Source: a virus
Taxonomy: Duplodnaviria; Caudoviricetes
Length of the DNA stretch: 64,000 nt
Reading direction: 5' to 3' (one strand)
IMG/VR virus record: IMGVR_UViG_3300035491_000042
Coordinates: 32,001-96,000 of that record
The stretch's first letter is position 1. Each line of letters begins with the position of its first letter. Position numbers and translations under genes: made by a program. Below are positions 1,344 to 59,162 of this stretch, in pieces. The notes under the pieces are model-generated. The model was not told the origin of the DNA, searched no databases, and saw only the letters and a program-made list of their open reading frames with translations.

Positions 1344-2374
1344 TACTTTTCCTCGGTTTTGAGCTGCAAATATAGGGCTTCGAGCATTTTCTTGTCAATC
1401 CCATCAATGTCGACGCTCTCCCTGATCACCTTCACCACGACATCGTCAATGTTCTCGGTGTCAGAGACTTCGATATCTGCGCTCATGATCTCACGGGATT
1501 TGGTGTTGTTGAACTTGATACGCACACCGTCAAACGCCATCCCTGACAGCTTCTCTTGCACCTCATCGACGATGGAGTCATCGGTGACATCATCACCAAA
1601 CACAACGCGGATGGTTGTGTTTTCAACGTCATCACCCAGCTCCGCAAGCACCTCATCCAGCTTGTCATGATCAACAGAGATCACCTTGATACCCTGATAT
1701 GTCTCGAAGGTGGTTTTACCAGTGACGTCGTCGAAGATGAACACACCGTGGTCTTCGTTGGCTTCGTTCATGGTGATCGGGTATGGTGTTCCGACGTACA
1801 GGATGTTGTCCTTTTCCTGCATCGAGTGGTAGTGACCAGTCAGAACACGTTTGTACCCACGCAGCTCTCGGTGCGACTGACCATGTTCCATCTCATAGCG
1901 ATCATTCACCATGAAACCATTCAGCTCAAGGTGAGCGAACAGGTACTCAGCGTCCTTACTGGCGTTCACGACCTCATCCCACTGCTCGCCAGAGGCGATC
2001 CAAGGGGTCATCATGATATCACCGACCATAGTCGGTTCGTGGATCACTGTCACATATGGGCTCAGTACGTTGATGCTGCTGATATCAAGACGATCCAGAT
2101 AGAACAGGTCATGGTTACCTTCAAGCACGTAGACATTCTCACGTCCGAATACCTGACCCAACATCTGGGCACCGACGACGCCATAGTTCAGCGTCTGTAC
2201 CTGAATCTTACTGCGGCTGTGGAACCAGTCACCAAGTTGCACCACCTTGTCGACCTTATGGGCGAGACCAGTGTCAATCGCCCATTCCACGAAGTCAAGG
2301 ATGCTGTTGTTAAACTTCTCAGAGTCTCCGCGCTCACCAAAGTGCAGGTCTCCGATTACTAACCATCGGCTCAT
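1343..2374 (-). CDS. Recombination endonuclease nuclease subunit (T4 gp47/SbcD/Mre11-like)
   Basis: Metallophosphoesterase motifs GDLHFG, LGDWFH, GNHD, AHLEL, GHYH; lies between gp55-like and gp46-like genes. Confidence 0.92.
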   Translation of the reverse strand: MSRWLVIGDLHFGERGDSEKFNNSILDFVEWAIDTGLAHKVDKVVQLGDWFHSRSKIQVQTLNYGVVGAQMLGQVFGRENVYVLEGNHDLFYLDRLDISSINVLSPYVTVIHEPTMVGDIMMTPWIASGEQWDEVVNASKDAEYLFAHLELNGFMVNDRYEMEHGQSHRELRGYKRVLTGHYHSMQEKDNILYVGTPYPITMNEANEDHGVFIFDDVTGKTTFETYQGIKVISVDHDKLDEVLAELGDDVENTTIRVVFGDDVTDDSIVDEVQEKLSGMAFDGVRIKFNNTKSREIMSADIEVSDTENIDDVVVKVIRESVDIDGIDKKMLEALYLQLKTEEK

Positions 2375-2934
2375 TGTTCATTTTCCCATTCAATGACGTC
2401 TTCATCGTCGAAGTCGTCTTCATCACCGTCGTAGCGATCTTCCAGAATGGCTTTGCGTTCCTGTTCGCTGATCATGTCCATGTAGGCAGGATCGGCTTCG
2501 AGACCAAGCTCAAGCTTCATCTTGTTTACGACGTTGCGCTCAGTGTACTCGTTCTTGAGGAAATGGAACAACACATGCTTCATGCACGTGGTGAAATAGG
2601 CGTGTGGGTTGTTGCAGGTCAGGTAGTTGTACTCAACGATTTCGCCGTGCCATTCGACGATCTCTTTCCGAAGGATGTTGCCCTCTTCGTCTCGCTCAAG
2701 GATTTTTGTTCGATAGGGTCGAAACTTTGGGAAGCCTTTCACGCAGGCGAGCATGCATTCAGAGATGATGTCGTCGCGAATGTGAAAGAAGCGAACGTAG
2801 TTCGGGTGGTTGGCATAACGCTCCGCAAGGAGCATGAACATCTTAGCTAACTCATCACTGATCTCGTCTTTCTTCAGAGAGAGAAGCATTTCACGAAAGA
2901 AATCAGCGGGCTGAATGTAGTTTTTTTTACTCAT
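2371..2934 (-). CDS. Late-transcription sigma factor (T4 gp55-like)
   Basis: NNPHAYFTTC motif resembling gp55; 187 aa; acidic C-terminus; canonical gp55-gp47-gp46 order. Confidence 0.85.
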   Translation of the reverse strand: MSKKNYIQPADFFREMLLSLKKDEISDELAKMFMLLAERYANHPNYVRFFHIRDDIISECMLACVKGFPKFRPYRTKILERDEEGNILRKEIVEWHGEIVEYNYLTCNNPHAYFTTCMKHVLFHFLKNEYTERNVVNKMKLELGLEADPAYMDMISEQERKAILEDRYDGDEDDFDDEDVIEWENEQ

Positions 2935-2957
2935 GTGGTAACTCCAGTTGTGTCTTG

Positions 2958-2986
2958 ATTGTATGACAAAAATTCAAATCTGTCCA
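2958..2986 (-). promoter_or_regulatory. sigma70-like promoter for the gp55-47-46 operon
   Basis: Minus strand reads TGGACA-17 nt-TACAAT just upstream of the gp55-like start. Confidence 0.6.
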
Positions 2987-3043
2987 ATGATTTATCCATA
3001 GATTTTGATGGTTCTGAAAACACGGGATATGTTGTTGAATCTA

Positions 3044-3162
3044 AAGGATTTTTCATTCTTTGAATACAGTAATAAGTATTGAGTCGCTGCGCTCGCTGTC
3101 GCTCGCTCCGCTCCTCACCTGTTCACTGGATTTTCGTTGAAGTTTCATTGAAATATATTAGG
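3044..3162. repeat. 119-bp non-coding direct repeat, copy 1
   Basis: Ungapped match to 43770-43888 with 5 mismatches by manual alignment; contains (G)CTCGCT-like reiterations. Confidence 0.95.
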
Positions 3163-3259
3163 CGACTGAATGAGAATCATTTGCATTTAAAATTGTTTTT
3201 CATTTGAACAGTGTTTGTGTTTGAGAATTGTTATCATAATACAGAATACGTCTTTTCTC

Positions 3260-3265
3260 TAAATA
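3260..3265 (+). promoter_or_regulatory. Putative late promoter (TAAATA) heading the tail operon
   Basis: TAAATA core of the T4 late promoter TATAAATA, ~30 nt before the 3298 start. Confidence 0.55.
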
Positions 3266-3297
3266 AACATGTAGATTTCATCCATTTGGAGAAAAGA

Positions 3298-3486
3298 ATG
3301 AAAAAGTATACAAACAACACTCACTCGATGAAAACCGTTCTGTTCAAGGATGGGTCGGCACAGTTCCTGATGAGGGGCCAGTCGTTCGAGAGTGACAAAG
3401 AAATTGAGCGTGTTTCTAAGGGTGTGCTCGTCAAAGACGTGGTAAAACCAAAAACCGCCAAAAAACCGACTGAAGAAACAAACTAA
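3298..3486 (+). CDS. Small hypothetical late protein (62 aa)
   Basis: ATG at 3298 with GGAG RBS inside ORF 3211..3486; directly precedes the sheath gene. Confidence 0.6.
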   Translation: MKKYTNNTHSMKTVLFKDGSAQFLMRGQSFESDKEIERVSKGVLVKDVVKPKTAKKPTEETN

Positions 3487-3506
3487 GAGATTCATAGGAG
3501 AAAAGA

Positions 3507-4979
3507 ATGTCATTTCCAAATTCACCGGGCGTTTATGATCGCATCGTAGATCGCTCTTTTGTTGTCAATTCCGGTGGTATCGTAGCTGGTGGTATCGTTG
3601 TATCTGCCAAGCGTGGACCGGCTAAAGTAAAAACTGTTACTTCGGCTCGTGAGTTCATCGAGACCTATGGTCTTCCGTCTCGTGATAACCCATCACTGTA
3701 CGCCGCCCTTCGATATCTGAACCGTGCTGGTGTGCTGAGTGTGCGTCGTGTTACCACTGAAGGCGACGACTATGCCACTGGTACTCTACTGAGCGGGGTT
3801 GATGACCAACTTATCGTTGAAGCCGCGAACGAAGGCTCGTGGGGCAACTCACTAACTGTTTCGTTTGAAGAGAGTGTCATTGGCTCTCCATCCGTCGTCG
3901 GTTGGTTCTACTTGATCGTCAAGGACGATGGTGTAGAAGTCGAGCGTTTTGAAGTTTCTCGTGACCCGAATGCGAAGAATGGTTTTGGTAACAGCATCTT
4001 CATTGAAGACGTTGTAAACAACCGTTCGAAGTACGTTCGAGTGTATGACGTCCCAACCGTTACAGCCGAATATGACTACGACGCCGTTATCACGCTGAGT
4101 GGTGGTACTGATGCAAGCACTGCCCCAACCTCCGGCGAGATCAATCTGGCTTGGGCTGAGTTCAATAACGTCGAAGAAGTACCGGCTACCCTTCTGATCA
4201 ATGGTGGTTGGGCAGTGCCTGAAATTCATGTCGCCATGCTGACTGTGGCTCGGAATCGCAAGGATGCTGTTGCGATCCTAGACGTTCCAGAAGACGTTGC
4301 TGACGACGTACAGGGGATGATTAACTATCGAACTACCGAACTCGCTGCTAACACCTATTTCGGTGGTATTTATGGCGGTTGGTTGCGTGTTTACGACCAA
4401 TACAACGACCGTGAAGTTCTGGTTCCGCCATCTGGTGACGTTGCTGCTGTTTTTGCAAACACCATTGAAGTTGCTGAACGCTGGGATGCCCCTGCTGGTC
4501 TGCAACGCGGTATCATCCCGAACGCACTTGGCGTGAGCAAGGTCTTCACCGAAGGCGAGCGCGATCTTCTCTATCGTTCTGGTGTGAACCCGGTCACCAC
4601 GTATGCTGGTGCTGCTGCTGTTATCTGGGGCCAGAAGACCCTTCAGGTACAGGCGAGCGCTCTCGACCGCTTCAACGTTGTCAACCTCGTCCTTTGGATG
4701 AACCAACGCATCGTAGAATCGCTGCAACCGTTCGTGTTCCAGCCGAACACCGTGTTCACTCGCGATAGCGTGAACTACCTGATTTCGAACTTCCTTGAGA
4801 ATATTCGTCTTCGTGGTGGTCTGTATGGTTACTCTGTCGACACATCTGAAAATATCAACACCCCACAGGTGATTGATAATAACCAGATGCTTGTTGATGT
4901 GTATATCAAACCGACACGCACGGCAGAATTCATTCGAGTTAGCACCATTGTTACACCGACTGGCGTAACTCTGGCGTAA
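3507..4979 (+). CDS. Contractile tail sheath protein (T4 gp18-like)
   Basis: N-terminal SPGVY, VPPSG..A, W.APAG..RG, WGQKTL, FVFQPN, IKPTRTAEFI sheath motifs. Confidence 0.95.
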   Translation: MSFPNSPGVYDRIVDRSFVVNSGGIVAGGIVVSAKRGPAKVKTVTSAREFIETYGLPSRDNPSLYAALRYLNRAGVLSVRRVTTEGDDYATGTLLSGVDDQLIVEAANEGSWGNSLTVSFEESVIGSPSVVGWFYLIVKDDGVEVERFEVSRDPNAKNGFGNSIFIEDVVNNRSKYVRVYDVPTVTAEYDYDAVITLSGGTDASTAPTSGEINLAWAEFNNVEEVPATLLINGGWAVPEIHVAMLTVARNRKDAVAILDVPEDVADDVQGMINYRTTELAANTYFGGIYGGWLRVYDQYNDREVLVPPSGDVAAVFANTIEVAERWDAPAGLQRGIIPNALGVSKVFTEGERDLLYRSGVNPVTTYAGAAAVIWGQKTLQVQASALDRFNVVNLVLWMNQRIVESLQPFVFQPNTVFTRDSVNYLISNFLENIRLRGGLYGYSVDTSENINTPQVIDNNQMLVDVYIKPTRTAEFIRVSTIVTPTGVTLA

Positions 4980-4993
4980 TAAAATCTGGTCAG

Positions 4994-5023
4994 AAAAAAA
5001 ACCCCTCATTGAGGGGTTTTTTT
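4994..5023. terminator. Bidirectional intrinsic terminator
   Basis: A8-CCCCTC-ATT-GAGGGG-T7 between the convergent sheath and endonuclease genes. Confidence 0.85.
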
Positions 5024-6679
5024 CAATTCGAAGCATAGTGAACCAGCGTCATAAACTCGCAACCAACCAGCTTCTCTCATGTTTTCGTGCTCTGTCTTCT
5101 TAACGTCGAATTGATCCAGAACTTTAGATAACTTGTGCTTCATGCACTGATGCCTTGAAAGGGTATATGTTTTACGTGTGTTGTAGTACCGGTAGTTTGG
5201 TTTTGTGATGTGCGACAGCTCGAACCCACTTTTCATGTACAAATCACCATGGCTGTAGTCGAGCGAAGCGAACGTCAAAATTCTTTTGATATTTTTCCCT
5301 CGCATAAAATGACTCAGTAGTTTAGTGAAACCTCCAACAACAGCCACTGACGTTGCATATCGAACTAGGTCATACTCTCCATCATCTTTTAGGCGTTTGA
5401 AGCTCATACATGCAACCAGTCGGTCTCCCGATACCAAACCAATAGTACTTACACCATGCACCGACCCTTGGATGTGGTTTTCGTCATAAAACGCTTTCGC
5501 GATGTTCTGGTTAACATCAACCACCCGTGTTTTCCTTGCAAATACTCGTTCTGATAAAACACCGATTGATCTAAGAATCCTCTTCTTTAATATTTTTTGC
5601 TTTCTTTCATCCTCCCAGTCATCCTCCCAAATATGAAAAAGATTGACCCCCTTCTTCATACACTCTGTCGATTTCTTTTGATGATAGTCCGATGGTTTGA
5701 ATTTCTCCGAATGCCAAAACAGTCCGTTATATTCGATTGCGAGTTTTTTGGATGGGATGTACAAATCGAGCTCCCTTCCATCAAGAACTGTGCGATCCGA
5801 TCTGATGATCTCATCATGTGGTATGATGGTGCTAATAAAATCATAGAGAACGTCTTCCCCGTGCGAGTGATTAGTGTCGTTTTGAACGCCAAGCTCTGCC
5901 ATTCTAGCTACCGTTCTACTGACCGAATAATCAAGAACCCTAGCAATCTCTTTTGTGTGTTTATATTCATTGACAACTTCTATAAACTTTGCGTCGTCAT
6001 TGAAAATGTCGTGATGTTTTTTATACGCTTTAGTTGTGTGATCAACACCATAACGCTCTGAAACAGTTTTTAGGTATGACAGTCTGGCAGCATGCTTGAA
6101 TGGTTTATGGTGCATTGGGTGTTCAACACCATACTTTTTCAACAACGTTTCCTTCTTAGTCTTACGACCTTGTTCGGTGTTTAAGTACATAACCCCACCA
6201 TACCGACTGGTGTTTGTATCAGCGACCTTCTTCTTGATACTATCTACCATCATTGGGTTTTCAACACCATACTTCTCAAGCATAGTATTTTTGAACTTCT
6301 CAATACCATCCGGTGTTCTCATATTGTGATCACCATACCTAGCAGTCATAGTATTTGTTCTCTTTTTTACTGTTGTTTCTGACTTCCTCGCGCATTCACG
6401 AGAACAATATGTGGAGAAGATATAGGAGTCGTAGTGACACTCACCGGCTCGTGAGTTCTGGCGAATAGTGACGTGACGTCCACACTCACATAGTGGTACG
6501 GATGTGATGTTCTTCATGATGCAATATAGCCGCATTGAGAACCGCTCCTTACCGCCCATATGTTTTGTTAAAAACTCCGTCTCGTTGATTATCAGCTCTT
6601 TCAGTTCTTTCAGCTCTTTTGACCTCCCAAATTTCACGGCATCTGGAAATCCAAGCTCTGTTATGATGTCAACAATCAT
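5006..6679 (-). CDS. Free-standing homing endonuclease, Hef-like PD-(D/E)xK type with YGVENP-like repeats
   Basis: Repeats KYGVENPM/KYGVEHPM/RYGVDHT; ELDLYIP..KLAIEYNG.FWH nuclease motif; C-terminal RVYDAG; sits antisense between sheath and tube genes. Confidence 0.75.
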   Translation of the reverse strand: MIVDIITELGFPDAVKFGRSKELKELKELIINETEFLTKHMGGKERFSMRLYCIMKNITSVPLCECGRHVTIRQNSRAGECHYDSYIFSTYCSRECARKSETTVKKRTNTMTARYGDHNMRTPDGIEKFKNTMLEKYGVENPMMVDSIKKKVADTNTSRYGGVMYLNTEQGRKTKKETLLKKYGVEHPMHHKPFKHAARLSYLKTVSERYGVDHTTKAYKKHHDIFNDDAKFIEVVNEYKHTKEIARVLDYSVSRTVARMAELGVQNDTNHSHGEDVLYDFISTIIPHDEIIRSDRTVLDGRELDLYIPSKKLAIEYNGLFWHSEKFKPSDYHQKKSTECMKKGVNLFHIWEDDWEDERKQKILKKRILRSIGVLSERVFARKTRVVDVNQNIAKAFYDENHIQGSVHGVSTIGLVSGDRLVACMSFKRLKDDGEYDLVRYATSVAVVGGFTKLLSHFMRGKNIKRILTFASLDYSHGDLYMKSGFELSHITKPNYRYYNTRKTYTLSRHQCMKHKLSKVLDQFDVKKTEHENMREAGWLRVYDAGSLCFELKKTPQ

Positions 6680-23598: not shown

Positions 23599-25518
23599 AT
23601 GACAACTATCGATAAATCGAAGATTCACTTCATTCAGAACGGTGAAGGGCACTTCCCGAAAGTCTATAACAGACCAACAGACAATCTCGCTGATGAGATT
23701 CAGCGTGGGTTCAATAGCATCGATAGTGATCTTGATCTTATTAGAACAAAAATCGCCGATGCTATTCGTGACACTGCTACCCTGAAACTGGACTTCGCTG
23801 CTAATGATTATGGTGTTGGTGGTGTTGGTTCGTATAGGGACGATAGTCTTGAGTTTGGTGATATCGTAACTTTCGGTCGATCTACTGGTGGTGGTCGTTT
23901 CAATGAACAGGGTTTGTATGAGTGGGTTGGTGTCAACGTGCCTCGAATTGATCATGACCCTTCCACGGTTCGTACTAACCTTGTAATTCAGAGTGGAAGC
24001 TTCGGTGGTTCGGAATGGGTTCGTGAACGGATAACAGTCAGTGATGGGACAGTAGTTGGATTGGACGGGGAACTGTCTGCGAGTAAGCTAATTGAAGACA
24101 CTACGACAAATAGTCACCGTCTCCGACAGAACATAGTTGTGATGGCTGGCACAACGTACACACTTTACGCGTTCGTCAAGGCTTCAGAACGAACTAAGGT
24201 AAGACTGTTTGCTGGTGGCACCTCTGCGTCTGCTGATTTCGATTTGGTTTCCCTTCAAATAAGCAACCAAGTAAACACAATTGGTGCTACAATTACCAAT
24301 CTACCCGATGGGTGGGTTCGCGTGAGTATTAGTTACAGACAGACATTCACCGGAAGCGCACTGCACCTAGTTGCGTTGCTCAATGAGAACGGGAGCTTTT
24401 CGTATCTTGGTGATGGTGTTAGTGGTGTTTCCATATACGGTGTTCAACTTTTACCCGGTGTCGATGTGTATGATTACATCCCAACAGAGGCAACCGCTAT
24501 TAGTACACCAGCAGAACCACTTGGCTTGTTGGTTGAAGAACCCCGAACTAACCTTTTCCCGTCATCAAATGGAGACGGTACTTTTGGTAACGTTCCGACA
24601 TTCACTGCAAACGCTGTTATATCTCCCGATGGGACATCGAACGCCACGCTTATTAACAGCGGTGCGTCACCTAACAGATATGAACTAGCTTTGACTTCCG
24701 GGTCTTCCGGCCTTGCGACCGGACAGGTATTCACAATCAGTTGGTGGGAGCTTCCCATCAATTACACGTTTAGTACGTGTCTGTCTCCGCAGTCTTTTGT
24801 GAACGCGAATATTATTAGCGGGACATTCGCGTTAGTACAGACTCTTCCTTCTGGGTGGAAAAGATATTCAGTCCAAGCAAGTATTATCGATGGAAGCCAG
24901 CTAGCGAGATTCAGGCTTTATTTTAGTGGCGGAATGTCCGGTGTAGTAGACCCTTGTGCAATTTGGGGCATTCAGGTTGAGATTGGATCGCTTTTAACCA
25001 GTTTGATCCCAACCTCGGGGACTGCTGTTACGCGGGCTGACGACAGAGCGTTTGTCAGTCAAACTGGTTGGTTAAACGCACTGGAAAGTACGTTATACGC
25101 AGAGTCCTCATCGATGTCTCAGAACAACGGGTATCGTGCAACCGTAACAGTCAGTGACGGAACACGATACCATCGTGCCGGACTTTATCGGAAACATTCT
25201 ACAGATACAATTGGTTTCACTGCATATCTTTTTGAGAGTATTGAAGGTTCTGCTCAGCTAAACAATAGTTCCAACTTCAACAGTGTTGGATTTGCAAAAC
25301 AGGCTATGGGGTGGGATCGCTCAACGTTTGCAATGGTGGGTAATGGCGGGGATGTTGTTTCAAATCTTAACTCCCCTGAGCTCACTTCATTGAATCGACT
25401 TTTGATTGGTGCTGGTAGTTCGGTTACTACTGAAAAGCTAGCAGGACACATCAAGTCAATCCGCTACATCCCTCGTAGGCTAACAGACGACGAGCTGAAG
25501 AAAATTACGTCACACTAA
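23599..25518 (+). CDS. Fibre/spike protein, paralog 1 (lectin/CBM-like modules)
   Basis: Anchor IDK..I.FI.N.E.H...VYNRP; F.RSTGGGRFNE.G.YEWV...PRIDHDP; GLLVEE.RTNL; GHIKSIRYIPRRL. Confidence 0.7.
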   Translation: MTTIDKSKIHFIQNGEGHFPKVYNRPTDNLADEIQRGFNSIDSDLDLIRTKIADAIRDTATLKLDFAANDYGVGGVGSYRDDSLEFGDIVTFGRSTGGGRFNEQGLYEWVGVNVPRIDHDPSTVRTNLVIQSGSFGGSEWVRERITVSDGTVVGLDGELSASKLIEDTTTNSHRLRQNIVVMAGTTYTLYAFVKASERTKVRLFAGGTSASADFDLVSLQISNQVNTIGATITNLPDGWVRVSISYRQTFTGSALHLVALLNENGSFSYLGDGVSGVSIYGVQLLPGVDVYDYIPTEATAISTPAEPLGLLVEEPRTNLFPSSNGDGTFGNVPTFTANAVISPDGTSNATLINSGASPNRYELALTSGSSGLATGQVFTISWWELPINYTFSTCLSPQSFVNANIISGTFALVQTLPSGWKRYSVQASIIDGSQLARFRLYFSGGMSGVVDPCAIWGIQVEIGSLLTSLIPTSGTAVTRADDRAFVSQTGWLNALESTLYAESSSMSQNNGYRATVTVSDGTRYHRAGLYRKHSTDTIGFTAYLFESIEGSAQLNNSSNFNSVGFAKQAMGWDRSTFAMVGNGGDVVSNLNSPELTSLNRLLIGAGSSVTTEKLAGHIKSIRYIPRRLTDDELKKITSH

Positions 25519-25545
25519 CTATTGTGATAATATAGGAAACAAATT

Positions 25546-25740
25546 ATGCCAGTAATCGACAAAGGTAATATCGAGTTCATCGTTAACAACGAGAACCATG
25601 ACGCATCTGTCTACAACCGTCCTGTGGACACGCTAGCAGATGAGGTTCAGCTTGGTTTTAATGAGATAGACACTGATATCGCGAGCCTTAGTACCGGTAT
25701 CGAATCTCTCCTAGATGAGATCAATGGCGAGGTAATCTGA
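25546..25740 (+). CDS. Stand-alone fibre anchor/adaptor (64 aa)
   Basis: Homologous to the N-termini of 23599 and 31030; ends LLDEINGEVI; TGATG-coupled to the next gene. Confidence 0.7.
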   Translation: MPVIDKGNIEFIVNNENHDASVYNRPVDTLADEVQLGFNEIDTDIASLSTGIESLLDEINGEVI

Positions 25741-28712
25741 TGTCGTTCGTTGAAAAGTTTCAATATCTACGAAACACAAAATGGCTTCTTCGTGAAGCCA
25801 TCAGTGCTATTGGCGGGCGTGTATCTACAAGCGATACATTCAGATCGTTCAGAAAAGAGATTCTCAAGGATGAGGCTACCCTGATCCTTGATTTTGATCG
25901 TGACTTGTACGGTATCGGGGCAACGTCACAAACAAGAAATGACACCGCTGGTTTCTCCGATATCGTAACGTTCACTCGATCTACTGGTGGTGGACGTTTC
26001 AACCAGTTCGGTATGTATGAGTGGGTAGGTAATGATGTCCCTCGATTTGATCATGATCCAGCAACTCTGACAACATCGGCATCGAGTGTCACTATTGGCT
26101 ATGGTGAGAAGCGTTTCCACACCACCGGTCAATATGCACTTGGTGAATCTATTGTCGTGAGCTATGACGCCAACAATTACATGATTGGTACGGTAATCCT
26201 GTCTTCTGCTAGCACAGTGACCCTGAATGTTGTAACTGTTGTTGGTAGTGGGACTTATAGCGCTTGGACACTGATCGTTCGGCTTGGGCTGTTGGTTGAA
26301 GAAAGTCGGACTAATCGGCTGACATACAGCGAGTTTCAAAACGGGCTGGCTGACGCTCCAGTTAGATTCAATGTTACTGCTTCTGTAACGCCAGACTTCA
26401 ATCCCCTCGGGACTACGTCTTGTATAGTTTACCCTTACACACCAACGAGTAACACTTACGCATATAAGCAGTTCTCCGCTACAAGCGGAACACCTTATAC
26501 GTTCTCGTGTCTTGTGGTGATGGAAGACGGAGGTGTTCCCGTTATCGCGGAATCATCGACAGATGCGTCTGGCGACTTTCGTGTCGTAGTAGACAGCTCA
26601 AACGTGCTTATTTACTCCAAAGTGGAGCACGTTTGCGGTAACGTATACAAGGTAATCGGCCATAAGATCGGTGAAGCTACAGGGACAAGAAACTATGGTC
26701 TGTATAAAGCGATGGGTAACTCGACTCGCGGATTCAAAGTAACCGGATACCAGCTTGAAGTAGGAACCTTCCCTACCTCCTACATCCAAACCACAGGGAC
26801 TGCTATCACGAGGGCCAGTGAGTTATCTTACACAAAGACAATGGAGTGGTTCAACGCCGATGGTGGAACCGTCTACCAACACGTCGACTTCACCGACGGG
26901 CAAACCCAAACGACAGGCAGAGTATACCCTGCGATACTGAAAAGCTCTGTCGACGCTACCAGCTCTGCCTATACGCTGGGCCTGTACAACTTTGCGCGGA
27001 TGATTAAAGGAAATCCAGCCCCGACCGCCATTGATCCTTTGGGTACGTTCGACGGGGCAATGGGCAACGACGTAACTGACCCAATCAAGGTGGTGTACAC
27101 CTACGACGACGACGGACTCGTTACGGGGACAGCCAACGTTGGGGCCCCGAGGCCCCCAATCGACATGGGGTGCGACTTGTCACTGACTACCCGGTTAGGT
27201 ATCGTGCAGGCTAACAACTACTCAGGTCACATCAAATCCATCCGCTATATCCCTCGTCGTCTCGGATCATTGGAAATTGATGACGCCATTGCAACTATGA
27301 GCACTGAGTTTACCGAGGAAAAATATTCTCTGAATGGGATCGGGGGAAGCTCCGTGTCCGATGTTATGACATTCACACGTTCTACCGGTGGCGGGCGTTT
27401 CAATGAGCTTGGATACTATGAGTGGGTAGGCACTACCGACACACCGCGTATTGATCACGACCCGTCTACAGTAGGAACCAGTACAGACAGTATCACCATG
27501 AGTATTGGTGCTAAGACTATCAACACAACCAGACAGTATACTGCTGGGGATGTGATTTCAATTGCTTATGACGCATCAAACTATATGATTGCTCGTGTTC
27601 GTCATGCGACAGCGACTGTTGTTAATGTGGATGTCCTGAAGGTTGTTGGTAGTGGGACATATAGCGATTGGAGGATGGTTGTTCGTAAAGGTGTTATGGT
27701 TGAGGAGGGTCGGACTAACTTGCTGCCTAATTCAAAACCAATCACATACGGTTTTGGTGTGGCGACGAAAGAAGACGAAGTTGGGATTTCTGGTTCGATT
27801 GGGAGTGCTGTAAAAGTAACGCAAGTCGGAACCGGAGCAGAATATTCAAACTTAACAATTAGCGTAAGCACAACAACAACGTACACAACCTCTGTGTATG
27901 TAGCAAAACAAGCTAATGCCTATTCGGCGCGAATCTCAATTGGGCTATTACGCGCCCCGGCTGCGTCTGTGTATCGTGCAGACTTGCGCTTGAATCCGAC
28001 CGATGGGTCTCTCTTTCGGGCTAGTGGTCTAGCGCCGGCAACAGTGAGCGACGCTGGCGACTGGTGGAGAGTTACGGCAACAATTGTGCCAGATGGCGTG
28101 ATATCAACAATGCAGCTCTATGTAGAGGCGTCTAGTGCTAGGACTCCGGGGCAGTACAACACGTTCGACGCATTCCAGATAGAAGCAGGTACATCCGCGA
28201 CCTCCTATATCCCAACAGCAGGGACTGCTGTTACTCGTTCATACGATTCTCTATACCGCACAATCGGTTCGGAGATCGACTGGAATGAAGGTACTGTCAC
28301 TATGGACATGTCTATCGATAGTATTCCTCCTCAGTTGTATCGGCTGCTGAGTTTCAGCTCTGGTTCTGCTGACGACAGAATCACCATGTTCAATTCCAAC
28401 GGAAACTTTGGATTTGATTGTGCTGTTGGTGGAGTTACCTCGGTTTCGTATGACAGTGGCGTCTCTATGACCACTGGTAAGCATAAGATTGGTCTGTCGT
28501 GGTGTCGTACTCTGGGGATTCTGAAAATCGCGATAAACGGGGTTGTAACTACTGTTGATGGTGCTGTTTTAGACCCGTCAATCTTTGGACAGGTTTGGTT
28601 CGGACAACGAGGATATTCAGCCCTTGGTGCCATTGTCAACAGCTCGTTCGAGAATATCCGTTTCTCAAAGAGCATCATGATCGATGATGAGCTCTCGGTG
28701 ATTACCAGCTAA
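25740..28712 (+). CDS. Fibre/spike protein, paralog 2 (two tandem modules)
   Basis: Two copies of FTRSTGGGRFN..G.YEWVG...PR.DHDP...VEE.RTN; N-terminal K..YL..TK.LLR.AI. Confidence 0.7.
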   Translation: MSFVEKFQYLRNTKWLLREAISAIGGRVSTSDTFRSFRKEILKDEATLILDFDRDLYGIGATSQTRNDTAGFSDIVTFTRSTGGGRFNQFGMYEWVGNDVPRFDHDPATLTTSASSVTIGYGEKRFHTTGQYALGESIVVSYDANNYMIGTVILSSASTVTLNVVTVVGSGTYSAWTLIVRLGLLVEESRTNRLTYSEFQNGLADAPVRFNVTASVTPDFNPLGTTSCIVYPYTPTSNTYAYKQFSATSGTPYTFSCLVVMEDGGVPVIAESSTDASGDFRVVVDSSNVLIYSKVEHVCGNVYKVIGHKIGEATGTRNYGLYKAMGNSTRGFKVTGYQLEVGTFPTSYIQTTGTAITRASELSYTKTMEWFNADGGTVYQHVDFTDGQTQTTGRVYPAILKSSVDATSSAYTLGLYNFARMIKGNPAPTAIDPLGTFDGAMGNDVTDPIKVVYTYDDDGLVTGTANVGAPRPPIDMGCDLSLTTRLGIVQANNYSGHIKSIRYIPRRLGSLEIDDAIATMSTEFTEEKYSLNGIGGSSVSDVMTFTRSTGGGRFNELGYYEWVGTTDTPRIDHDPSTVGTSTDSITMSIGAKTINTTRQYTAGDVISIAYDASNYMIARVRHATATVVNVDVLKVVGSGTYSDWRMVVRKGVMVEEGRTNLLPNSKPITYGFGVATKEDEVGISGSIGSAVKVTQVGTGAEYSNLTISVSTTTTYTTSVYVAKQANAYSARISIGLLRAPAASVYRADLRLNPTDGSLFRASGLAPATVSDAGDWWRVTATIVPDGVISTMQLYVEASSARTPGQYNTFDAFQIEAGTSATSYIPTAGTAVTRSYDSLYRTIGSEIDWNEGTVTMDMSIDSIPPQLYRLLSFSSGSADDRITMFNSNGNFGFDCAVGGVTSVSYDSGVSMTTGKHKIGLSWCRTLGILKIAINGVVTTVDGAVLDPSIFGQVWFGQRGYSALGAIVNSSFENIRFSKSIMIDDELSVITS

Positions 28713-28720
28713 GGAAAAAT

Positions 28721-30256
28721 ATGAGTATTGAAAATAAAGCAAAGTACCTTCTTGAAACGAAGGTACTTCTACGCAATGCGATCAATCGGGTCGGTGGTAA
28801 TCTCTCCGCTACCGACCCTTTTCGCGCCTATCCTGAGCAACTAACAGCGGTCGACGAGCCCAATGTTCTTCTTGACTTCACAACCGGATATTTCTCCGTT
28901 GGGGCTGGGCTCAAACGTAATCGTGGTGGAAAGTTCTCTGATGTTCTAACATTCACTCGATCTACTGGTGCTGGTAGATATAACGAACTTGGTATGTATG
29001 AGTGGGTAGCTGCTGACACTCCAAGGATAAATCACAAACCAGCAACCAAAAGCACGAGCACAACAACGAATGTGATCGGTATTGGATCAAAGACGTTCCA
29101 GACTACCGTTCAGTATGCGGTTGGGACGCCTCTGTGCATTTCTTATGACCTCACAAACTTCATGAGGGGGGTTGTCACAGCCTCAACAGCCTCAACCGCT
29201 ACCGTTGACGTACAGTCGGTGGTGGGTAGTGGAACCTATTCATCGTGGACGCTAATCGAGACCGAAGGACTTCTGATTGAAACTCAGGAGACAAACGAAA
29301 TCGAAAGTAGTGAGTTTTCTGCTGGAATATCTGATGCTACTGGTGAGAATGCAAGTATTGCAGCATATACAGGAGACTTTGGTCCTCTTGGAACAACAAC
29401 TGGTATCGAGCTCACAACAGGTGCAGCAGAGTCATATGTTACCGTGATCCAATGGCTCACAAAAGGAACCAGAACAGCCTTTTCATTCTTTGTGAAAATG
29501 AGTAATGGCGCTCAACCGAATATCGGTGAAGACGTTAGTGATGATTTCTCTCTGATTGTGAACTCACTGGCAGTTAGTCAGAACGCGGGTGCCACTGTAG
29601 AGGTCGAGCCACTAGGGGATGGGGTATACCGTGTCTCTGTCGTCTTCGTGTACACCACACCACCGTTTGGTGATGGTCGCTTCGGCATTCGACGTGAGAG
29701 CGGACAGGAACTGAAGAGTATCTATGTAACTGGCTTTCAGGTCGAAGCTAGCACATCTGTCAGAAAACAAACTTCCTATATCAGGACGAGTGGAACAACC
29801 ACCACAAGAGCATCGGAGTATACTTCTCTTGCGAATGGTATATGGTTTAACAAGACCGAAGGAACTGTGTTCGCAGAAGGCTACGACAATAACGCTCAGA
29901 AAATCGTCAGCATCGGGACATCCATCTCTGATTATTATGCGAACGTGGGTAATGATATTATTACTAACACAGCAGAAGCACTAACACGAACTGGTGGAAC
30001 TGTTCAGGCGGATATCACTATCCCATTCACAAGCCAGATACCCAAATACGCGTATGCTTACAAAACCAACGACGTCGCATTTTGCGTTGATGGTTCTGCG
30101 GTGGGAACTGATACCAGCGTTACGCTACCCACAACAGATGCTGCCATGTATATTGGTACAGGTCTCGGAGTTAGCGTTATGGCGGGTGTTGTGAAGAGAA
30201 TCAAGTACATCCCAAGACGACTAACTAATATGGAACTACAGGAACTTACATCATGA
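28721..30256 (+). CDS. Fibre/spike protein, paralog 3
   Basis: N-terminus homologous to 25740 (KAKYLLETKVLLRNAI..VGG..S.TDPFR); FTRSTGAGRYNE.G.YEWV; IKYIPRRL. Confidence 0.7.
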   Translation: MSIENKAKYLLETKVLLRNAINRVGGNLSATDPFRAYPEQLTAVDEPNVLLDFTTGYFSVGAGLKRNRGGKFSDVLTFTRSTGAGRYNELGMYEWVAADTPRINHKPATKSTSTTTNVIGIGSKTFQTTVQYAVGTPLCISYDLTNFMRGVVTASTASTATVDVQSVVGSGTYSSWTLIETEGLLIETQETNEIESSEFSAGISDATGENASIAAYTGDFGPLGTTTGIELTTGAAESYVTVIQWLTKGTRTAFSFFVKMSNGAQPNIGEDVSDDFSLIVNSLAVSQNAGATVEVEPLGDGVYRVSVVFVYTTPPFGDGRFGIRRESGQELKSIYVTGFQVEASTSVRKQTSYIRTSGTTTTRASEYTSLANGIWFNKTEGTVFAEGYDNNAQKIVSIGTSISDYYANVGNDIITNTAEALTRTGGTVQADITIPFTSQIPKYAYAYKTNDVAFCVDGSAVGTDTSVTLPTTDAAMYIGTGLGVSVMAGVVKRIKYIPRRLTNMELQELTS

Positions 30257-38807: not shown

Positions 38808-40343
38808 TCAGAAACTGATCCCCCACACCTCATCATCCATATTGACCTCGTCAATATTGTTTACCCTGTCATAGACATCATCATCAAAGTTCGCAAGCTG
38901 TGGAAGCATATTCATCAGCAAGACAAGCGCCATCACCAAGTCATCCTTCGCACCTTTCTCAGCAGCAAACCCAGCTCCCTGCTTGATGAAGAACTTTAGC
39001 TCCGTCAAAACTTTGATGGAGTGTAGCGTCATGCGGTTGGTCTCAACCAAGTCCTTCAGCGACATACAGCCTGTCATCTTCTTCGGGTTGGTAGTATACG
39101 TGCCCAGTCGGGTGATAGTGCCATCTTTATTGATGTCCGAGATCATGATAGCATTCTGAAGAGCGTCATTGGTGCTGTTCTCGATCAGACGGATGATGCC
39201 CTGACCGATACTGTTCGCTTCTACAGTGTAGTAGACATCAACCGCCCCTTCATCGAATAGGTGCTCAATGAACGCAACGATCTCCTTGAAGTACATGGTC
39301 TGGTTCAGCGTATTGTTTGAGAACTCTGCAACCTGCTCAAACGTCTCCACGTCTACAGCCTGAATAGCATGGTTATCCTTCGAGATACCTTCAGCCACGT
39401 CACATGCAAACGCGATACGTCTTCCTTTGAAGCTCTCGACATAGATATCAAAGAACGTCCTGAACGTCCTTACTGGCTCCTTCGATGGGAGTGCTTCAAG
39501 AATCGAAGAGTTGATCAACAGGGGACTGTCAGACACGAACGCGCCTTCGTATTCCTGATGATACTTTTCCTTCGACATCTTACCAAGCATCTTCTTCTTG
39601 AACTCTTCAGTACGACCGGGGATCAGCTTGTAATCCACTTTCATGTACGCGAAGCCGTTACGCTTAGCCATGGCACCGAATGCCAGCTCAGCATATTTCC
39701 CTACAGTACCACGAGGGGTAGAGATGAAGATTGCCTTGGTTGTACTCTCTTCACCATCCGCAGTCAGCGATGGTAGCAGAGCAGTATAGAATTCTTCAGC
39801 CACCAGTGGGCTCACGAACGCAAATTCGTCGACGATAGCCAATTGGTTAGTACGACCACGAAGAGCGTTCTCACTGGTTACCTGTACATAGATTTGTGAA
39901 CCATGAGCGAATGCAACCTCAGTACGGTTGTACAAAGTAACAGCAGGCTTCAGGAAGTCAGGCAGTTCTTCATACGCAGTCTTCACACGCGCAAGGAAGT
40001 CCTTACAGTTCGCTGTTTTGAACGATGTGAAACCTACGGTGAAGTCGTCGGTGAAAATCGCCTGATGTAGAGCGTACAATCCAAGCGTAATAGTCTTTCC
40101 CGATTGACGCGGTGCGTTGACACACGTCATTTGCTCATCACAAATTAACCGAATCAAATCTTCTTGATAGATTCGAGGCTCGTAAAGTTTACGACCCTTT
40201 GGTGTTACTACCTTACAGTAGGTCGTCATGAAGTAGAACGGATCAGCAGCACACTTGATCCACTCTTCATCTTCTTCTTTGGTTCGAGGTTTCTCAGCAC
40301 CGGGTTTCTTGACAAGCGCCTCGACGACATTGTACTGTCCCAT
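38808..40343 (-). CDS. terL: Terminase large subunit (T4 gp17-like)
   Basis: KCAADP.YF, PRQSGKT Walker A, IVDEFAF Walker B, ISTPRG, DVAEG...D, DDLVMA. Confidence 0.95.
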   Translation of the reverse strand: MGQYNVVEALVKKPGAEKPRTKEEDEEWIKCAADPFYFMTTYCKVVTPKGRKLYEPRIYQEDLIRLICDEQMTCVNAPRQSGKTITLGLYALHQAIFTDDFTVGFTSFKTANCKDFLARVKTAYEELPDFLKPAVTLYNRTEVAFAHGSQIYVQVTSENALRGRTNQLAIVDEFAFVSPLVAEEFYTALLPSLTADGEESTTKAIFISTPRGTVGKYAELAFGAMAKRNGFAYMKVDYKLIPGRTEEFKKKMLGKMSKEKYHQEYEGAFVSDSPLLINSSILEALPSKEPVRTFRTFFDIYVESFKGRRIAFACDVAEGISKDNHAIQAVDVETFEQVAEFSNNTLNQTMYFKEIVAFIEHLFDEGAVDVYYTVEANSIGQGIIRLIENSTNDALQNAIMISDINKDGTITRLGTYTTNPKKMTGCMSLKDLVETNRMTLHSIKVLTELKFFIKQGAGFAAEKGAKDDLVMALVLLMNMLPQLANFDDDVYDRVNNIDEVNMDDEVWGISF

Positions 40344-42708: not shown

Positions 42709-43304
42709 CCGAATTTAAACCCCATGTTTGTAAGCATTGATTTGAACTCCTTCACAGAGTCATTATATGTTCTTTGTATATTCCGCAACAGGTAGTTGGT
42801 AGTTGGGATTCCTCGTTCTGATGTAACAGTGATAAAAGGAATACCTTTCAGCTCTTTCACCACATCGATAATGTGTCGAAGCTGTTCGTTGTAGTCACCA
42901 TCGAGGTTATCCCCACCACCAGAACGGTACACCTCTCGTGGCATATAGATGATTGCTCTGGTGATATACCGACGAATGCCTTTGATCTCGTTCGTATAGA
43001 TACGATCTTCCATCTGTGATCCCTTGCCTCTTAGGTGTACGATCTGCCAGTCATCTTCATCCATTTCTTCACGCCCAACAGGTGAACCGCTGTAGCGTTG
43101 ACCCAGAGCTTCACCATCGAGCTCGAAGAGTACACCAATCATTCGGTGGTCGCGTGGGTTTGACCCCATGACCGACCGGCTGAATGAGATTTCACCGATT
43201 CGTGAACGCATGGTATTCGAGCGAAGGATACCGCTCGCATGATCGAACGTGGTGAAATGATAGAGAGTCTTGGAAACTCCCTCGAAAAGGTCTTCAACTC
43301 TCAT
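42705..43304 (-). CDS. Putative internal head protein with ADP-ribosyltransferase-like fold (paralog of 41788)
   Basis: MRVEDLFEG; LYHFT...ISFSRS...LDG..L.Q.Y.G.PV...QMEDRI. Confidence 0.55.
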   Translation of the reverse strand: MRVEDLFEGVSKTLYHFTTFDHASGILRSNTMRSRIGEISFSRSVMGSNPRDHRMIGVLFELDGEALGQRYSGSPVGREEMDEDDWQIVHLRGKGSQMEDRIYTNEIKGIRRYITRAIIYMPREVYRSGGGDNLDGDYNEQLRHIIDVVKELKGIPFITVTSERGIPTTNYLLRNIQRTYNDSVKEFKSMLTNMGFKFG

Positions 43305-43714
43305 TTCTTAACCAGTCTGACCTTCTCTGCAAGCTCAGCACGACTCAAAGGCTTGTACTCAGCGGTGCTTTCTTCATCTTCACCAGCGCCGTCTTTGGCA
43401 ACCTCTGACCCCGTCTTACCGGCATTCGCCTTAACGATGCGTTTAGCCATCTCTTCGAGGTACTTCTTCTTGTAGATAGCGTCTTTGGCTTGGTTCAGGT
43501 ATCGCTCGCATACCTCAAGGTACTTCACCCGGTTCTTTGGTTCGATCAAGGCGATATCATCCATCTGCTCCTTGTACGCCTTTAGCGCAAGGTCAGCAAT
43601 CAAGTCAAGGTTTTTCAGCTCGCGCTCGTCTGGGATGTGTACGGCTACGTAGTCATCATCGATCATGTTGTCTGTTGCGATATTGAATTCGTCATCTAGT
43701 GGGTTCTTTGACAT
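43301..43714 (-). CDS. Possible terminase small subunit
   Basis: 137-aa helical protein, first gene of the late unit (TAAATA at 43737-43742, minus) pointing toward terL. Confidence 0.4.
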   Translation of the reverse strand: MSKNPLDDEFNIATDNMIDDDYVAVHIPDERELKNLDLIADLALKAYKEQMDDIALIEPKNRVKYLEVCERYLNQAKDAIYKKKYLEEMAKRIVKANAGKTGSEVAKDGAGEDEESTAEYKPLSRAELAEKVRLVKK

Positions 43715-43769
43715 GGTCTTCTCCTGTCGTTCCTAGTATTTAGTCGCTTGGGATATGTCTATGAAATGG

Positions 43770-43888
43770 AAGGATTTTTCATTCTTTGAATACAGTAATA
43801 AGTATTGAGTCGCTAGGCTCGCTGTCGCTCGCTACGCTCCTCACCCGTTCACTGGATTTTCGTTGAAGTTTCATTGGAATATATTAGG
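43770..43888. repeat. 119-bp non-coding direct repeat, copy 2
   Basis: Ungapped match to 3044-3162 with 5 mismatches. Confidence 0.95.
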
Positions 43889-43959
43889 GAAATAAATTTG
43901 ATCAATCGGTTTTGATTTATGAATAGAAAAAGTCAATGAACAATTTTTTTTAGGTGGGT

Positions 43960-43967
43960 TATAAATA
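43960..43967 (+). promoter_or_regulatory. Late promoter TATAAATA upstream of phoH
   Basis: Exact consensus 38 nt before the 44006 start. Confidence 0.7.
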
Positions 43968-44005
43968 TTCCTAAGCGGTGTGCGTCGATAGGAGCATCCT
44001 GAACT

Positions 44006-44749
44006 ATGAGTAAAACACGTAAGCAGCATCTGAATACTGAAAACGAGAGTGAGAGTAATGTCCGTATACTGGGAGCCAACAAGAGGCTCCATTCGCATGA
44101 CGTGAAACCATTCAAAGCAAAAAGTGAGAACCAAGCAGAGTTTCTGCGACTCTACTACCAAGACATCCCCATCATCTCACTACACGGTTGGGCAGGTACA
44201 GGTAAGACATACTTAGCTCTGGCTGCTGCAATGGAAGAGGCGTTTGACAGTTCGAGCCCATATGAGAAAATCACCATCATCCGTTCTGCTGTAGAGGTTC
44301 GGAAGAAAGGGTTTCTACCGGGTACGGAAGAAGAGAAGATGGCAGTTTATGAACGCCCATACGAGAGTATCTTCCGAGAGCTTCTTAGTTTCAAAGATGG
44401 CTACCGACATGCCAAGGCACTGGGTCAGGTAGACTTCATTTCATCTTCATTCCTACGTGGCGACACGTTCAATGATCAGATCGTCATCGTCGACGAAGCT
44501 GAGAACATGGACTACGCCGAGTTATCAACCATTATGACCCGTGTCGGTGTCAATTGCCGAATGATCTTCATCGGTGACGACCGACAAACCGATCTCACAC
44601 GCCATCGTGAGGTGTCCGGTTTTAACCAACTTCGCAAGGTTCTGAACGAAATGAGCCAAGACCTAGTTGGTATGGTAGATTTCACCCAAGACGATATTGT
44701 CCGCAGTGAGATCGTAAAACAATTCCTGATCGCAGAATCTCGAATCTAA
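44006..44749 (+). CDS. phoH: PhoH-family ATPase
   Basis: GWAGTGKT, GFLPG..EEK, FLRGDTF, IVDEAEN, GDDRQTD, DIVRS. Confidence 0.93.
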   Translation: MSKTRKQHLNTENESESNVRILGANKRLHSHDVKPFKAKSENQAEFLRLYYQDIPIISLHGWAGTGKTYLALAAAMEEAFDSSSPYEKITIIRSAVEVRKKGFLPGTEEEKMAVYERPYESIFRELLSFKDGYRHAKALGQVDFISSSFLRGDTFNDQIVIVDEAENMDYAELSTIMTRVGVNCRMIFIGDDRQTDLTRHREVSGFNQLRKVLNEMSQDLVGMVDFTQDDIVRSEIVKQFLIAESRI

Positions 44750-56518: not shown

Positions 56519-56533
56519 GTTTTGGAGAGTTTC

Positions 56534-58258: not shown

Positions 58259-59162
58259 TATGATCGATTTTGAAGAGACAAACGTGGTATGGGGTTGGAG
58301 AGACGACCCCAAAGAAGGGTATGTGTGGGATCAGTTACCGCTGAAGCATGCGATTGCTGGTGATACTGACTCGATCATGCTGACCTTGAACAGTGTCGTC
58401 GGAGAAGACGACTCACTTGACGATATCGTGGCTGTGGCAGACGAGATCGGTAATCTGACCAATGAAGCATTCCCAGACTTCTGTGTTCGAGCATTCAACA
58501 CGCCTGAGTCTCGTAAGGGGACGGTAAAGACGGATCGCGAGGTAGTATTCGACAAGGCTCTGTTCCTGACGAAGAAGCGTTACATCATGCATGTTGTCGA
58601 CTCTGAAGGAAAGCGCGTCGACAAGATGAAGATCATGGGTGTTGAGCTCAAGAAGTCCGACACATCCAAGGCGATTAAACAGATTCTCCGTAAGCTGGTG
58701 GATATGATTCTTGACGGTTATGATATGGATTATGTGTTGGATGAGGTTCAGAAGATGCGTCGTTCGTTTGAAGAGTTCAGCGCTATCGAGATTGCCAAGC
58801 CAATCAACGTCAAGACGCTGAAGCGCTGTCAGGATGCCTATGCCATGACGGGGTCGATGAAAGGTTTCCCGTATCAGGTACGAGCTACTATGTTCTGGAA
58901 CGAGAACTGTGGTAAACTGGACAAGCAGATCATGCCGGGTGAAAAGGTTGGTCTGGTGTACATCAAACATCCGAAGAGCAAGTACATTGCGTTCCCGATT
59001 GATATGACAGTCTTTCCAGACTGGTTCGACGAGTTCAAGATTGACTATGCGACGGAATGGCTAAAAGCCAAGAAGAAAATTGAAAACTATCTTGCGTCCC
59101 TTGAGTGGGATGCCAAAGGAAGACGAGATGCAATCAAAAGAGACCTCTTCGGGTTCGACTGA
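58251..59162 (+). CDS. Family B DNA polymerase, C-terminal subunit (motif C, thumb)
   Basis: AGDTDS, KKRY, KIMGVE.KKS; C-terminal clamp-binding-like DLFGF; ATG at 58251 after GGAGG. Confidence 0.9.
   Translation: MTDMIDFEETNVVWGWRDDPKEGYVWDQLPLKHAIAGDTDSIMLTLNSVVGEDDSLDDIVAVADEIGNLTNEAFPDFCVRAFNTPESRKGTVKTDREVVFDKALFLTKKRYIMHVVDSEGKRVDKMKIMGVELKKSDTSKAIKQILRKLVDMILDGYDMDYVLDEVQKMRRSFEEFSAIEIAKPINVKTLKRCQDAYAMTGSMKGFPYQVRATMFWNENCGKLDKQIMPGEKVGLVYIKHPKSKYIAFPIDMTVFPDWFDEFKIDYATEWLKAKKKIENYLASLEWDAKGRRDAIKRDLFGFD

Follow-up and report, generated by a model that had tools for sequence, protein, structure and literature searches.

What does a non-coding stretch of 119 nucleotides do in a phage genome that holds it twice, almost letter for letter, at both of its main divergent strand switches? 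The question is raised by a 64-kb window, the whole stretch of DNA analysed here, which corresponds to bases 32001-96000 (C1) of the virus record IMGVR_UViG_3300035491_000042 and whose own numbering is used for all coordinates unless otherwise indicated. The full record comprises 152,211 bp with a GC content of 0.47, a 127-bp terminal overlap marks it as a circular assembly, and the phage is a distant relative of T4. An initial annotation of the window had proposed a whole menu of functions for the duplicated element, from replication origin, single-strand initiation signal or conserved non-coding RNA (ncRNA) to protein-binding, packaging or recombination site. Of this menu, a conserved cis element stood up to analysis, with an anatomy that fits a protein-binding or origin-like site, and the initiation hairpin, the structured RNA and a likeness to plasmid ColE1 did not. 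Our results support the view that this conserved element has a function in cis at both of the main divergent strand switches. Its best reading is a cis-acting DNA site and not a gene; it is probably bound by a protein and possibly acts as an origin of replication.

Copy 1 of the element (E1) occupies positions 3044..3162 and copy 2 (E2) positions 43770..43888, both on the plus strand and 40,726 nt apart. As first described, the two align without gaps, with 114 of the 119 positions identical and the five mismatches at 3091, 3092, 3108, 3121 and 3151 of copy 1. A repeat search extended the pair to 148 nt at 89% identity (3024-3171 and 43750-43897), whose left end is the common GGGATATGT found 11 nt before each copy (3024..3032 and 43750..43758, plus strand), the sequence that had already been noticed some 20 nt upstream; identity decays here, only 13 of the 20 positions from 3024 to 3043 being shared between the copies. 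The search for more copies that had been suggested was run by BLAST on the whole genome and returned exactly two places for the element (E 1.5e-75 and 1.1e-52), with no further match longer than 13 nt by blastn-short over the 152,211 bp. A misassembly, raised at the outset as the artefact to be feared, is ruled out by independent wastewater and seawater metagenomes, which confirm both copies together with their junctions. In this regard, a single contig from the wastewater run spans 2657-4300, that is, the gp55-like gene, the element and the sheath gene, and in two seawater runs the repeat assembles as a separate piece while loose contig ends match the flanks of copy 2 on the left and on the right. 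Moreover, in one of the seawater runs a 92-nt piece of the repeat was found at a depth of 465, about twice the 270-278 of the unique contigs. No RNA dataset was listed among the sequencing runs that hold this sequence, and the one run labelled RNA-Seq, which is probably DNA, gave no coverage of the element.

A close view of the element reveals an ordered series of parts, all on the plus strand. The left part (3044..3083 and, in copy 2, 43770..43809), which is identical at 40 of 40 positions between the copies, comprises a T-tract (GGATTTTTCAT) and then an 18-nt imperfect palindrome, AATAC-N8-GTATT, that contains TACAGTAATAAGTAT (3063..3080); a scan with the pattern ATACAG-W6-STAT matched the two copies and no other place in the genome. 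Then come three GC-rich direct repeats of 9-10 nt with the form TCGCTnCGC (TCGCTGCGC, TCGCTGTCGC and TCGCTCCGC; 3084..3113 and 43810..43839), detected by Tandem Repeats Finder (TRF) with period 9 and 3.2 copies, which make up the GC-rich core initially reported (GC 0.70 over 3081-3117). A short spacer separates them from three AT-rich direct repeats of 11 nt (TGGATTTTCGT, TGAAGTTTCAT and TGAAATATATT; 3127..3159 and 43853..43885; TRF period 11), and each of the two sets is spaced at about one helical turn. The 9-mer pattern TCGCT-N(1-2)-CGC has 15 matches in the genome, five of them in the two copies, against a genome-wide mean of 6.75 in mononucleotide shuffles; for the 11-mer pattern TGRANTTTCRT the genome holds seven matches (four in the two copies) against a shuffle mean of 1.45. 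In 9-mer units 1 and 3, the variable positions in the middle account for three of the five differences between the copies. Each copy is followed, as also claimed, by AT-rich DNA, with a GC content of 0.28 over the 135 nt at 3163..3297 and of 0.33 over the 117 nt at 43889..44005, compared with 0.47 for the genome. A degenerate second core considered to the right of each copy was rejected, its score being reached by 47 and 80 of 500 shuffles, and a reading of the element as a MITE-like (miniature inverted-repeat transposable element) insertion was dropped as well, no terminal inverted repeats or target duplication having been seen.

Comparison of strains and close relatives showed that the element varies by whole repeat units. 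The 11-mer is present twice in L008, a related metagenome contig, three times in the window, and four times in runs X3 and X4, each of which duplicated a different unit (an additional TTGAAGTTTCA in X3, an additional TGGATTTTCGT in X4). The seawater run X4 also differs from the window in the surrounding DNA: with 11 differences in 774 nt, the left flank, where the gp55-like gene lies, is 98.6% identical; from 3205 rightward 269 other letters stand in place of 289 nt, and the sheath genes agree at about 80%. The window segment 3205-3495 is part of a strain mosaic, in which the late-promoter region and a small open reading frame (ORF) have been replaced by 269 unrelated letters. In this one strain comparison, a single observation, the boundary of the module is found some 43 nt beyond the right end of the element. 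The suggestion that the element could serve as a recombination point between modules finds some ground in that boundary, which would equally fit any conserved island flanked by variable DNA. An element that breaks short-read contigs and adjoins a module boundary in one comparison matters for assembly and for the study of mosaic evolution.

In L008, whose sheath and gp55-like proteins are 62% and 77% identical to those of the window, the element is in place in the spacer between the two genes, and its left part is the best-kept piece of that spacer, with 34 of 40 positions identical, whereas the flanking DNA matches at 55 of 89 and 73 of 135. The two window copies share 95.8% of their positions with each other and 68% with the L008 ortholog. 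The contig of a further relative, L006 (sheath 70% identical), starts inside a tract of the CGCT type, as if the assembly had broken at the repeat. Another relative (L010:120-980) carries an insertion, an ORF of some 280 aa that separates the small ORF from the sheath gene and by eye looks like a GIY-YIG endonuclease.

The nearest cultured relatives are the Alishewanella phages Slickus01 and Slicko01, whose sheath protein is 44% identical to that of the window and whose syntenic ortholog of the 137-aa ORF adjoining copy 2 is 40% identical; for the gp55-like protein the figure is 42% in a three-way alignment and 40% by BLASTP. Both phages keep both gene neighbourhoods of the element, and each genome holds exactly two occurrences of the exact 22-mer CTATATACAGATATATCTATAT, one per spacer and oriented with respect to the sheath gene and phoH just as the window copies are. 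Among the repeats listed, and read by eye, this 22-mer is the only exact repeat of at least 22 nt outside the early-cassette cluster that is neither coding, nor tRNA, nor terminator. Its two sites are again divergent strand switches, an arrangement therefore found in both complete genomes, with the copies direct in the window phage and inverted in the Alishewanella phages. A third lineage, represented by L017 (gp55-like protein 44% identical), carries two exact 30-mers 156 nt apart in the spacer between the gp55-like and sheath genes. Within each genome the copies are nearly or fully alike (96% in the window, 100% for the Alishewanella 22-mer, 100% for the L017 30-mer), and the Alishewanella and L017 cores agree at 15 of 16 positions over TACAGnTATATCTATA, a count made by eye that carries no significance figure. 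As a separate observation on gene layout, the main convergence of gene orientation in the Alishewanella phage record OQ508957.1 lies at about 57.2 kb, almost opposite the sheath|gp55 element at 128.7 kb, the two being separated by arcs of 71.5 and 70.1 kb on the 141.6-kb circular map.

Searches by sequence for further examples of the element gave no megablast match and one irrelevant 36-nt blastn match in public phage records. Exact-pattern scans of viral contigs returned 0, 0 and then 59 stretches, of which the best 8 of the 59 were unlike the element beyond the 16-mer, and all were taken as chance matches; the same kind of scan on metagenomes gave 0 matches. Among viral contigs, the gp55-like protein led to two distant loci and then to L017. 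The 137-aa ORF led to no relatives in a protein-guided search, PhoH led to L007, which is not syntenic, and a protein-guided search of genome contigs found no relatives either. The element is not described in Rfam or in the literature searched, and in excerpts of the paper on the Alishewanella phages (PMC10507051) the phrase 'origin of replication' has 0 occurrences and repeats appear only with regard to CRISPR or sampling.

The anatomy of the element, its strict number of two, its position, the conserved arrangement in three lineages and the identity within genomes despite divergence between them are what the analysis shows directly. Copies that are alike within a genome and different between genomes, while position and number are kept, are the signature of a cis site read by a co-evolving phage-specific protein, possibly with gene conversion; the likeness within genomes fits either such co-evolution with a binding protein or gene conversion. 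The pattern implies a phage protein that reads the element. An element that keeps position, orientation and a count of two at about 40% protein identity while its sequence turns over is a concrete candidate for an origin or a master control site, the two functions that it most resembles. Among specific functions we rank a replication origin first, as a tentative choice, because phased short direct repeats, tandem AT-rich units and an AT-rich flank form the classic layout of an origin, and because there are precedents in T4 and in the lytic myovirus ICP1, for which sections of one report describe a second origin late in infection (PMC7145576). In such a mechanism, a phage-encoded sequence-specific protein would bind the repeats on one face of the helix, the 11-mers and the AT-rich flank would be where the duplex opens, and the two copies would be origins at the divergent switches where replication initiates, so that forks would run in the direction of transcription.

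Several results weigh against an origin. The best ungapped alignments of the window core with the Alishewanella and L017 cores have 13 of 22 and 15 of 30 positions identical, values reached by 466 and 783 of 1000 shuffles, and a register aligned on TACAG and chosen by eye gives only 11-12 of 16 to the same cores; moreover, the GC-rich repeats have no counterpart in the elements of the Alishewanella phages and L017, which measure only 22-30 nt. Because this core similarity is not beyond chance, the proposed homology across lineages rests on synteny and position, on orientation and on the two-copy pattern, and a motif common to the lineages by eye, TACAGWWATAWSTAT, which is not beyond chance for the window element, is kept as a lead only. 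Any spacer that bears promoters sits at a divergent switch by construction. Boxes for DnaA are not enriched, with a single one-mismatch box in the spacer of copy 1 and 0 in that of copy 2 at a genome rate of 0.56 per kb, and no known initiator was recognised among the 27 ORFs scanned, which lie near both copies and in the two rightward arms of the window. Cumulative GC skew, put forward at the start as a check, does turn at both copies, being lowest in the whole genome near copy 1 and passing through a local minimum at copy 2. However, it tracks the orientation of the genes throughout, even across the 5-kb leftward packaging unit and a reverse-oriented homing-endonuclease gene, and consequently it provides no independent evidence and cannot separate replication from transcription.

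The spacers of E1 and E2 are two of the largest in the genome and, on a crude ORF map, its two main divergent strand switches. To the left of E1 lies a gene for a gp55-like late sigma factor (2371..2934, minus strand; PHROG 234, E 6.5e-13), with SbcD- and SbcC-like genes behind it, all leftward. To the right, a 62-aa ORF without family match (MKKYTNNTH...; 3298..3486, plus strand) heads a unit that continues with the tail sheath gene (3507..4979, plus strand; PHROG 23, E 3e-71; Pfam Phage_sheath_1) and the tail tube gene; the small ORF is kept in L005, L006, L008, L009 and L017 and is not annotated in the Alishewanella phage. The left neighbour of E2 is the 137-aa ORF (43301..43714, minus strand), the first gene of a 5-kb leftward unit ending in TerL (38808..40343, minus strand), which lies 3 kb beyond it. 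On the right, a PhoH-like gene (44006..44749, plus strand) heads a rightward arm of about 44 kb, a length taken from the crude ORF map, which also holds a UvsX-like recombinase, a helicase, a split DNA polymerase and a ligase. The flanks named in the initial annotation were therefore right as to gp55, tail and phoH, but the label 'terS-like' for the 137-aa ORF was not confirmed: the ORF has no match to a terminase or any other family and no PDB sequence match, its relatives at E <= 0.001 are 10 proteins (its own included) of which none is functionally named, and its AlphaFold2 model, a long and generic helical hairpin with a mean pLDDT of 69.7, gave no Foldseek match at E <= 0.001.

All four units flanking the copies have recognisable promoters of their own outside the 119-nt core, and hence the element is not needed as a promoter. 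The gp55-like gene is preceded by a sigma-70-like promoter, TGGACA-17-TACAAT (2958..2986, minus strand), conserved in L008, and the 62-aa ORF by the T4-type late-promoter-like TCTAAATA (3258..3265, plus strand), with an exact TATAAATA at the orthologous site in L008, L006 and the Alishewanella phage. An exact TATAAATA late octamer also stands 39 nt ahead of phoH (43960..43967, plus strand), and the 137-aa ORF and its packaging unit have the late-promoter-like ACTAAATA (43737..43744, minus strand), an octamer found too before the Alishewanella ortholog and before the small ORF of L017. Altogether, octamers of the late type are found 73-96 nt beyond the right end of the element, and copy 2 has one more 26 nt from its left end. 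The real early promoters of this genome are classical sigma-70 sites and a cassette family elsewhere. Outside the window, at C1:8486-10920, at least four near-identical cassettes of 46-58 nt carry on their minus (coding) strand AGTTGACTTCACC, a stem TTGGGAT...ATCCCAA and GCTAAAGT, and they look like early promoters with an embedded hairpin, as in the promoter early stem-loop (PeSL) cassettes; a comparable cassette recurs in many copies at 9.6-15.3 kb in the Alishewanella phage.

Some features of the neighbouring arms may be recorded here. A gene for a 557-aa HNH/homing endonuclease (5006-6679, minus strand; PHROG 3339, E 5.8e-116) is located between the sheath and tail tube genes and is absent from that place in L008 and in the Alishewanella phage. 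Two more homing/HNH endonuclease genes are found in the replication arm, one after the UvsX-like gene (47762-48814, plus strand) and another after an ATPase gene (53822-55096, plus strand). The split DNA polymerase consists of overlapping ORFs of 578 and 309 aa (56522-58258 and 58233-59162, plus strand) that correspond to the N- and C-terminal parts of PHROG 262, and the Alishewanella phage likewise has two adjacent 'DNA polymerase' coding sequences. Four diverged copies of a 113-nt segment, together with other repeats, recur about 1.4-2.1 kb apart at 23854-29046 within large plus-strand ORFs and are probably repeated tail-fibre modules.

Other explanations for the pair of copies have to be weighed against an origin. 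The main rival, which is possible if doubtful, is that a phage regulator binds the repeats at both divergent control regions, as in two-copy operator or enhancer sets, or that the element is an unusual, activator-dependent promoter starting a rightward transcript through the GC tract. Replication could be primed by that transcript itself, as happens at T4 oriF and oriG, and an origin transcript would then join this explanation with the origin, the two not being exclusive. A promoter would account for the constant orientation to the downstream genes, which is the same for both window copies, in L008, at the two sites of each of the two Alishewanella phages and for the two tandem copies of L017, tandem copies being typical of tandem promoters; the L017 core ends in a perfect TATAAT, and in the Alishewanella phages TTGAAT or TTGACA stands before the core, whose end is TATATA or TATATT. 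Promoters are also what T4 oriF and oriG are based on, according to passages of a review (PMC3016281). However, no sigma-70 -35/-10 pair with a spacing of 16-18 nt is common to both copies, the -35-like hexamer of the Alishewanella phage is 20 nt from the -10-like one, and the -10-like hexamer of the window, TATTGA, lacks the final T. The element belongs neither to the classical or cassette early type nor to the TATAAATA-like late type of its own genome, having no octamer of this kind inside it. Searches for MotA (MotCF) and AsiA gave no match in the genome at E <= 1, and one for a single-subunit RNA polymerase gave none either, a weak blank as the control also matched nowhere. Moreover, the two rightward arms differ in temporal class, tail versus replication genes, and there are just two sites per genome. 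A packaging or genome-organising site, either for binding or synapsis by the small terminase or as a centromere-like array, is unlikely. Bent DNA and arrays of direct repeats 10-11 nt long are characteristic of pac sites and of ParR-type centromeres. Copy 2, which would be the site adjoining the packaging genes, directly precedes the leftward unit that ends in TerL, with a syntenic ORF kept in the Alishewanella phage; but that 137-aa neighbour has no terminase family match, only a generic helical hairpin was obtained as its model, and the TerL gene of the Alishewanella phage belongs to a different unit at a distance of 12 kb. The better-conserved locus is the one between gp55 and sheath, where L017 has both of its copies, and the change from direct to inverted copies would be odd for a directional start of packaging.

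The absence of any function of its own, the stretch being either homogenised between two spacers by gene conversion or a relic of module recombination, is likewise improbable. The higher identity between the window copies than to their ortholog would be expected from it, T4-type phages recombine heavily, and the mosaic of run X4 joins a nearly identical left flank to replaced DNA from 3205 rightward; nevertheless, the two-locus pattern is kept across lineages that share about 40% protein identity despite the changed sequence, the left part is the best-conserved piece of its spacer, and the changes respect repeat units. The case for a small ncRNA gene or a structured leader, for instance an antitermination signal heading two long rightward arms, is weaker again and we consider it improbable indeed. 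An RNA would explain the high identity across 119 nt, which starts about 10 nt after a -10-like TATGT, the rightward arms are about 35 and 44 kb long, and RNAalifold on three sequences finds 1-2 pairs changed on both sides; but the covariation term of the same analysis is positive, that is, unfavourable, on both strands, and the RNA of either strand folds no better than shuffles (z +0.25, +1.12, -1.55 and -0.67, with 120, 181, 15 and 43 of 200 shuffles folding at least as well). Rfam 15 gives 0 matches at gathering score in the 64-kb window, the only match of 2900-3320 being a sub-threshold one to an insect long non-coding RNA model (E 0.25, 19.8 bits against a threshold of 50), and in the element itself a tRNA scan found none and no terminator-like site was seen. 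The phoH-side arm of the Alishewanella phage, moreover, is only 1 kb long. A micro-ORF of 17 codons from GGGATATGT was rejected too, as in L008 it has no ribosome-binding site, the frame reads on and the changes are mostly non-synonymous. Least probable is a single-strand initiation (ssi) or primosome assembly site of the ColE1 or phiX174 kind, for which a 15/16 identity to a sequence near the ColE1/pBR322 primosome assembly site had been cited. Some phage primases recognise GCT and GTC trinucleotides, in which the GC tract is rich, and this tract forms an imperfect inverted repeat centred near 3097-3100. Yet the best match in the ColE1 record (NC_001371) is 14/16, a chance value reached by 21 of 200 shuffles, and the 79-nt core, when folded as single-stranded DNA for each copy and strand, is no more stable than its shuffles (z -0.01, -0.08, +0.98 and +1.42; 93, 82, 173 and 185 of 200 at least as good), which argues against a hairpin-type signal.

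How, then, does the candidate origin compare with known systems? We assign the element to no named family, although its iteron-like anatomy is an observation. In the sections of a review that deal with T4 (PMC3016281), oriF (uvsY) and oriG (gene 34) are described as units of about 100 bp made of a promoter and an A+T-rich unwinding element, the T4 origins share few sequence characteristics among themselves and, going by the title of one of its references, they coincide with recombination hot spots. Like oriF and oriG, the element is a short (~100 bp) non-coding unit with A+T-rich DNA on one side and more than one occurrence per genome, and the counterpart of the unwinding element is found in the three AT-rich 11-mers followed by DNA with a GC content of 0.28 or 0.33. 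Unlike these MotA-dependent middle promoters, it comes without a matched MotA or AsiA homolog or a sigma-70 pair, and unlike the T4 origins its copies are 96% identical to each other and built of direct repeats. A different likeness is to the PeSL cassettes of T4-type phages, which extracts of a study present as repeated non-coding sequences and points of exchange between strains (PMC4122927). The element is also a repeated non-coding sequence of a T4-type genome at what may be a point of strain exchange; however, PeSLs are many-copy cassettes of early promoter and terminator in hyperplastic regions, whereas the element has two copies and neither early promoter nor stem-loop, and a PeSL-like cassette family exists elsewhere in the same genome, at 8.4-10.9 kb. 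With the primosome assembly sites of ColE1 and phiX174 it has in common a GC-rich tract, skewed in purines and pyrimidines, and some dyad symmetry, but its fold is not stable and the sequence likeness is at chance level.

In layout the element also resembles iteron-type origins, such as those of plasmids, lambda ori or oriC with its 9-mer boxes and AT-rich 13-mers: at least three short direct repeats follow one another at helical spacing and are joined by tandem AT-rich repeats, with AT-rich DNA on the flank. The direct repeats are evident both in the TRF periods of 9 and 11 and in the clustering of pattern matches in the two copies. Its sequence also differs from lineage to lineage, which is what a co-evolving initiator would lead one to expect; iterons are treated as well in a published article (PMC7145576). 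On the other hand, its repeats measure 9-11 nt instead of the typical 17-22 nt, DnaA boxes are not enriched, no known initiator is found in the 27 ORFs scanned, and it comes as two matched copies 40.7 kb apart. For this last trait a parallel exists in the satellite phage P4, in which two distant cis regions, ori and crr, hold the same iterons and are read by one protein; P4 encodes a known primase-helicase initiator. In the element, two distant cis regions carry the same short repeats as well, a likeness of design only. The element bears on how replication starts in T4-related phages outside the T-even group, and the cultured Slickus01 and Slicko01 carry an analogous element, so that the question can be taken directly to the bench. 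A bolder conjecture, which we hold to be rather doubtful, is that this T4-related lineage uses iteron-type origins, with a private co-evolving initiator and two matched origin copies per phage that are placed at divergent switches, leaving nearly all genes co-directional with the forks. If true, origins in this group would be sequence-specific and keep their position from lineage to lineage, whereas those of T4 are described as having few sequence characteristics in common (PMC3016281).

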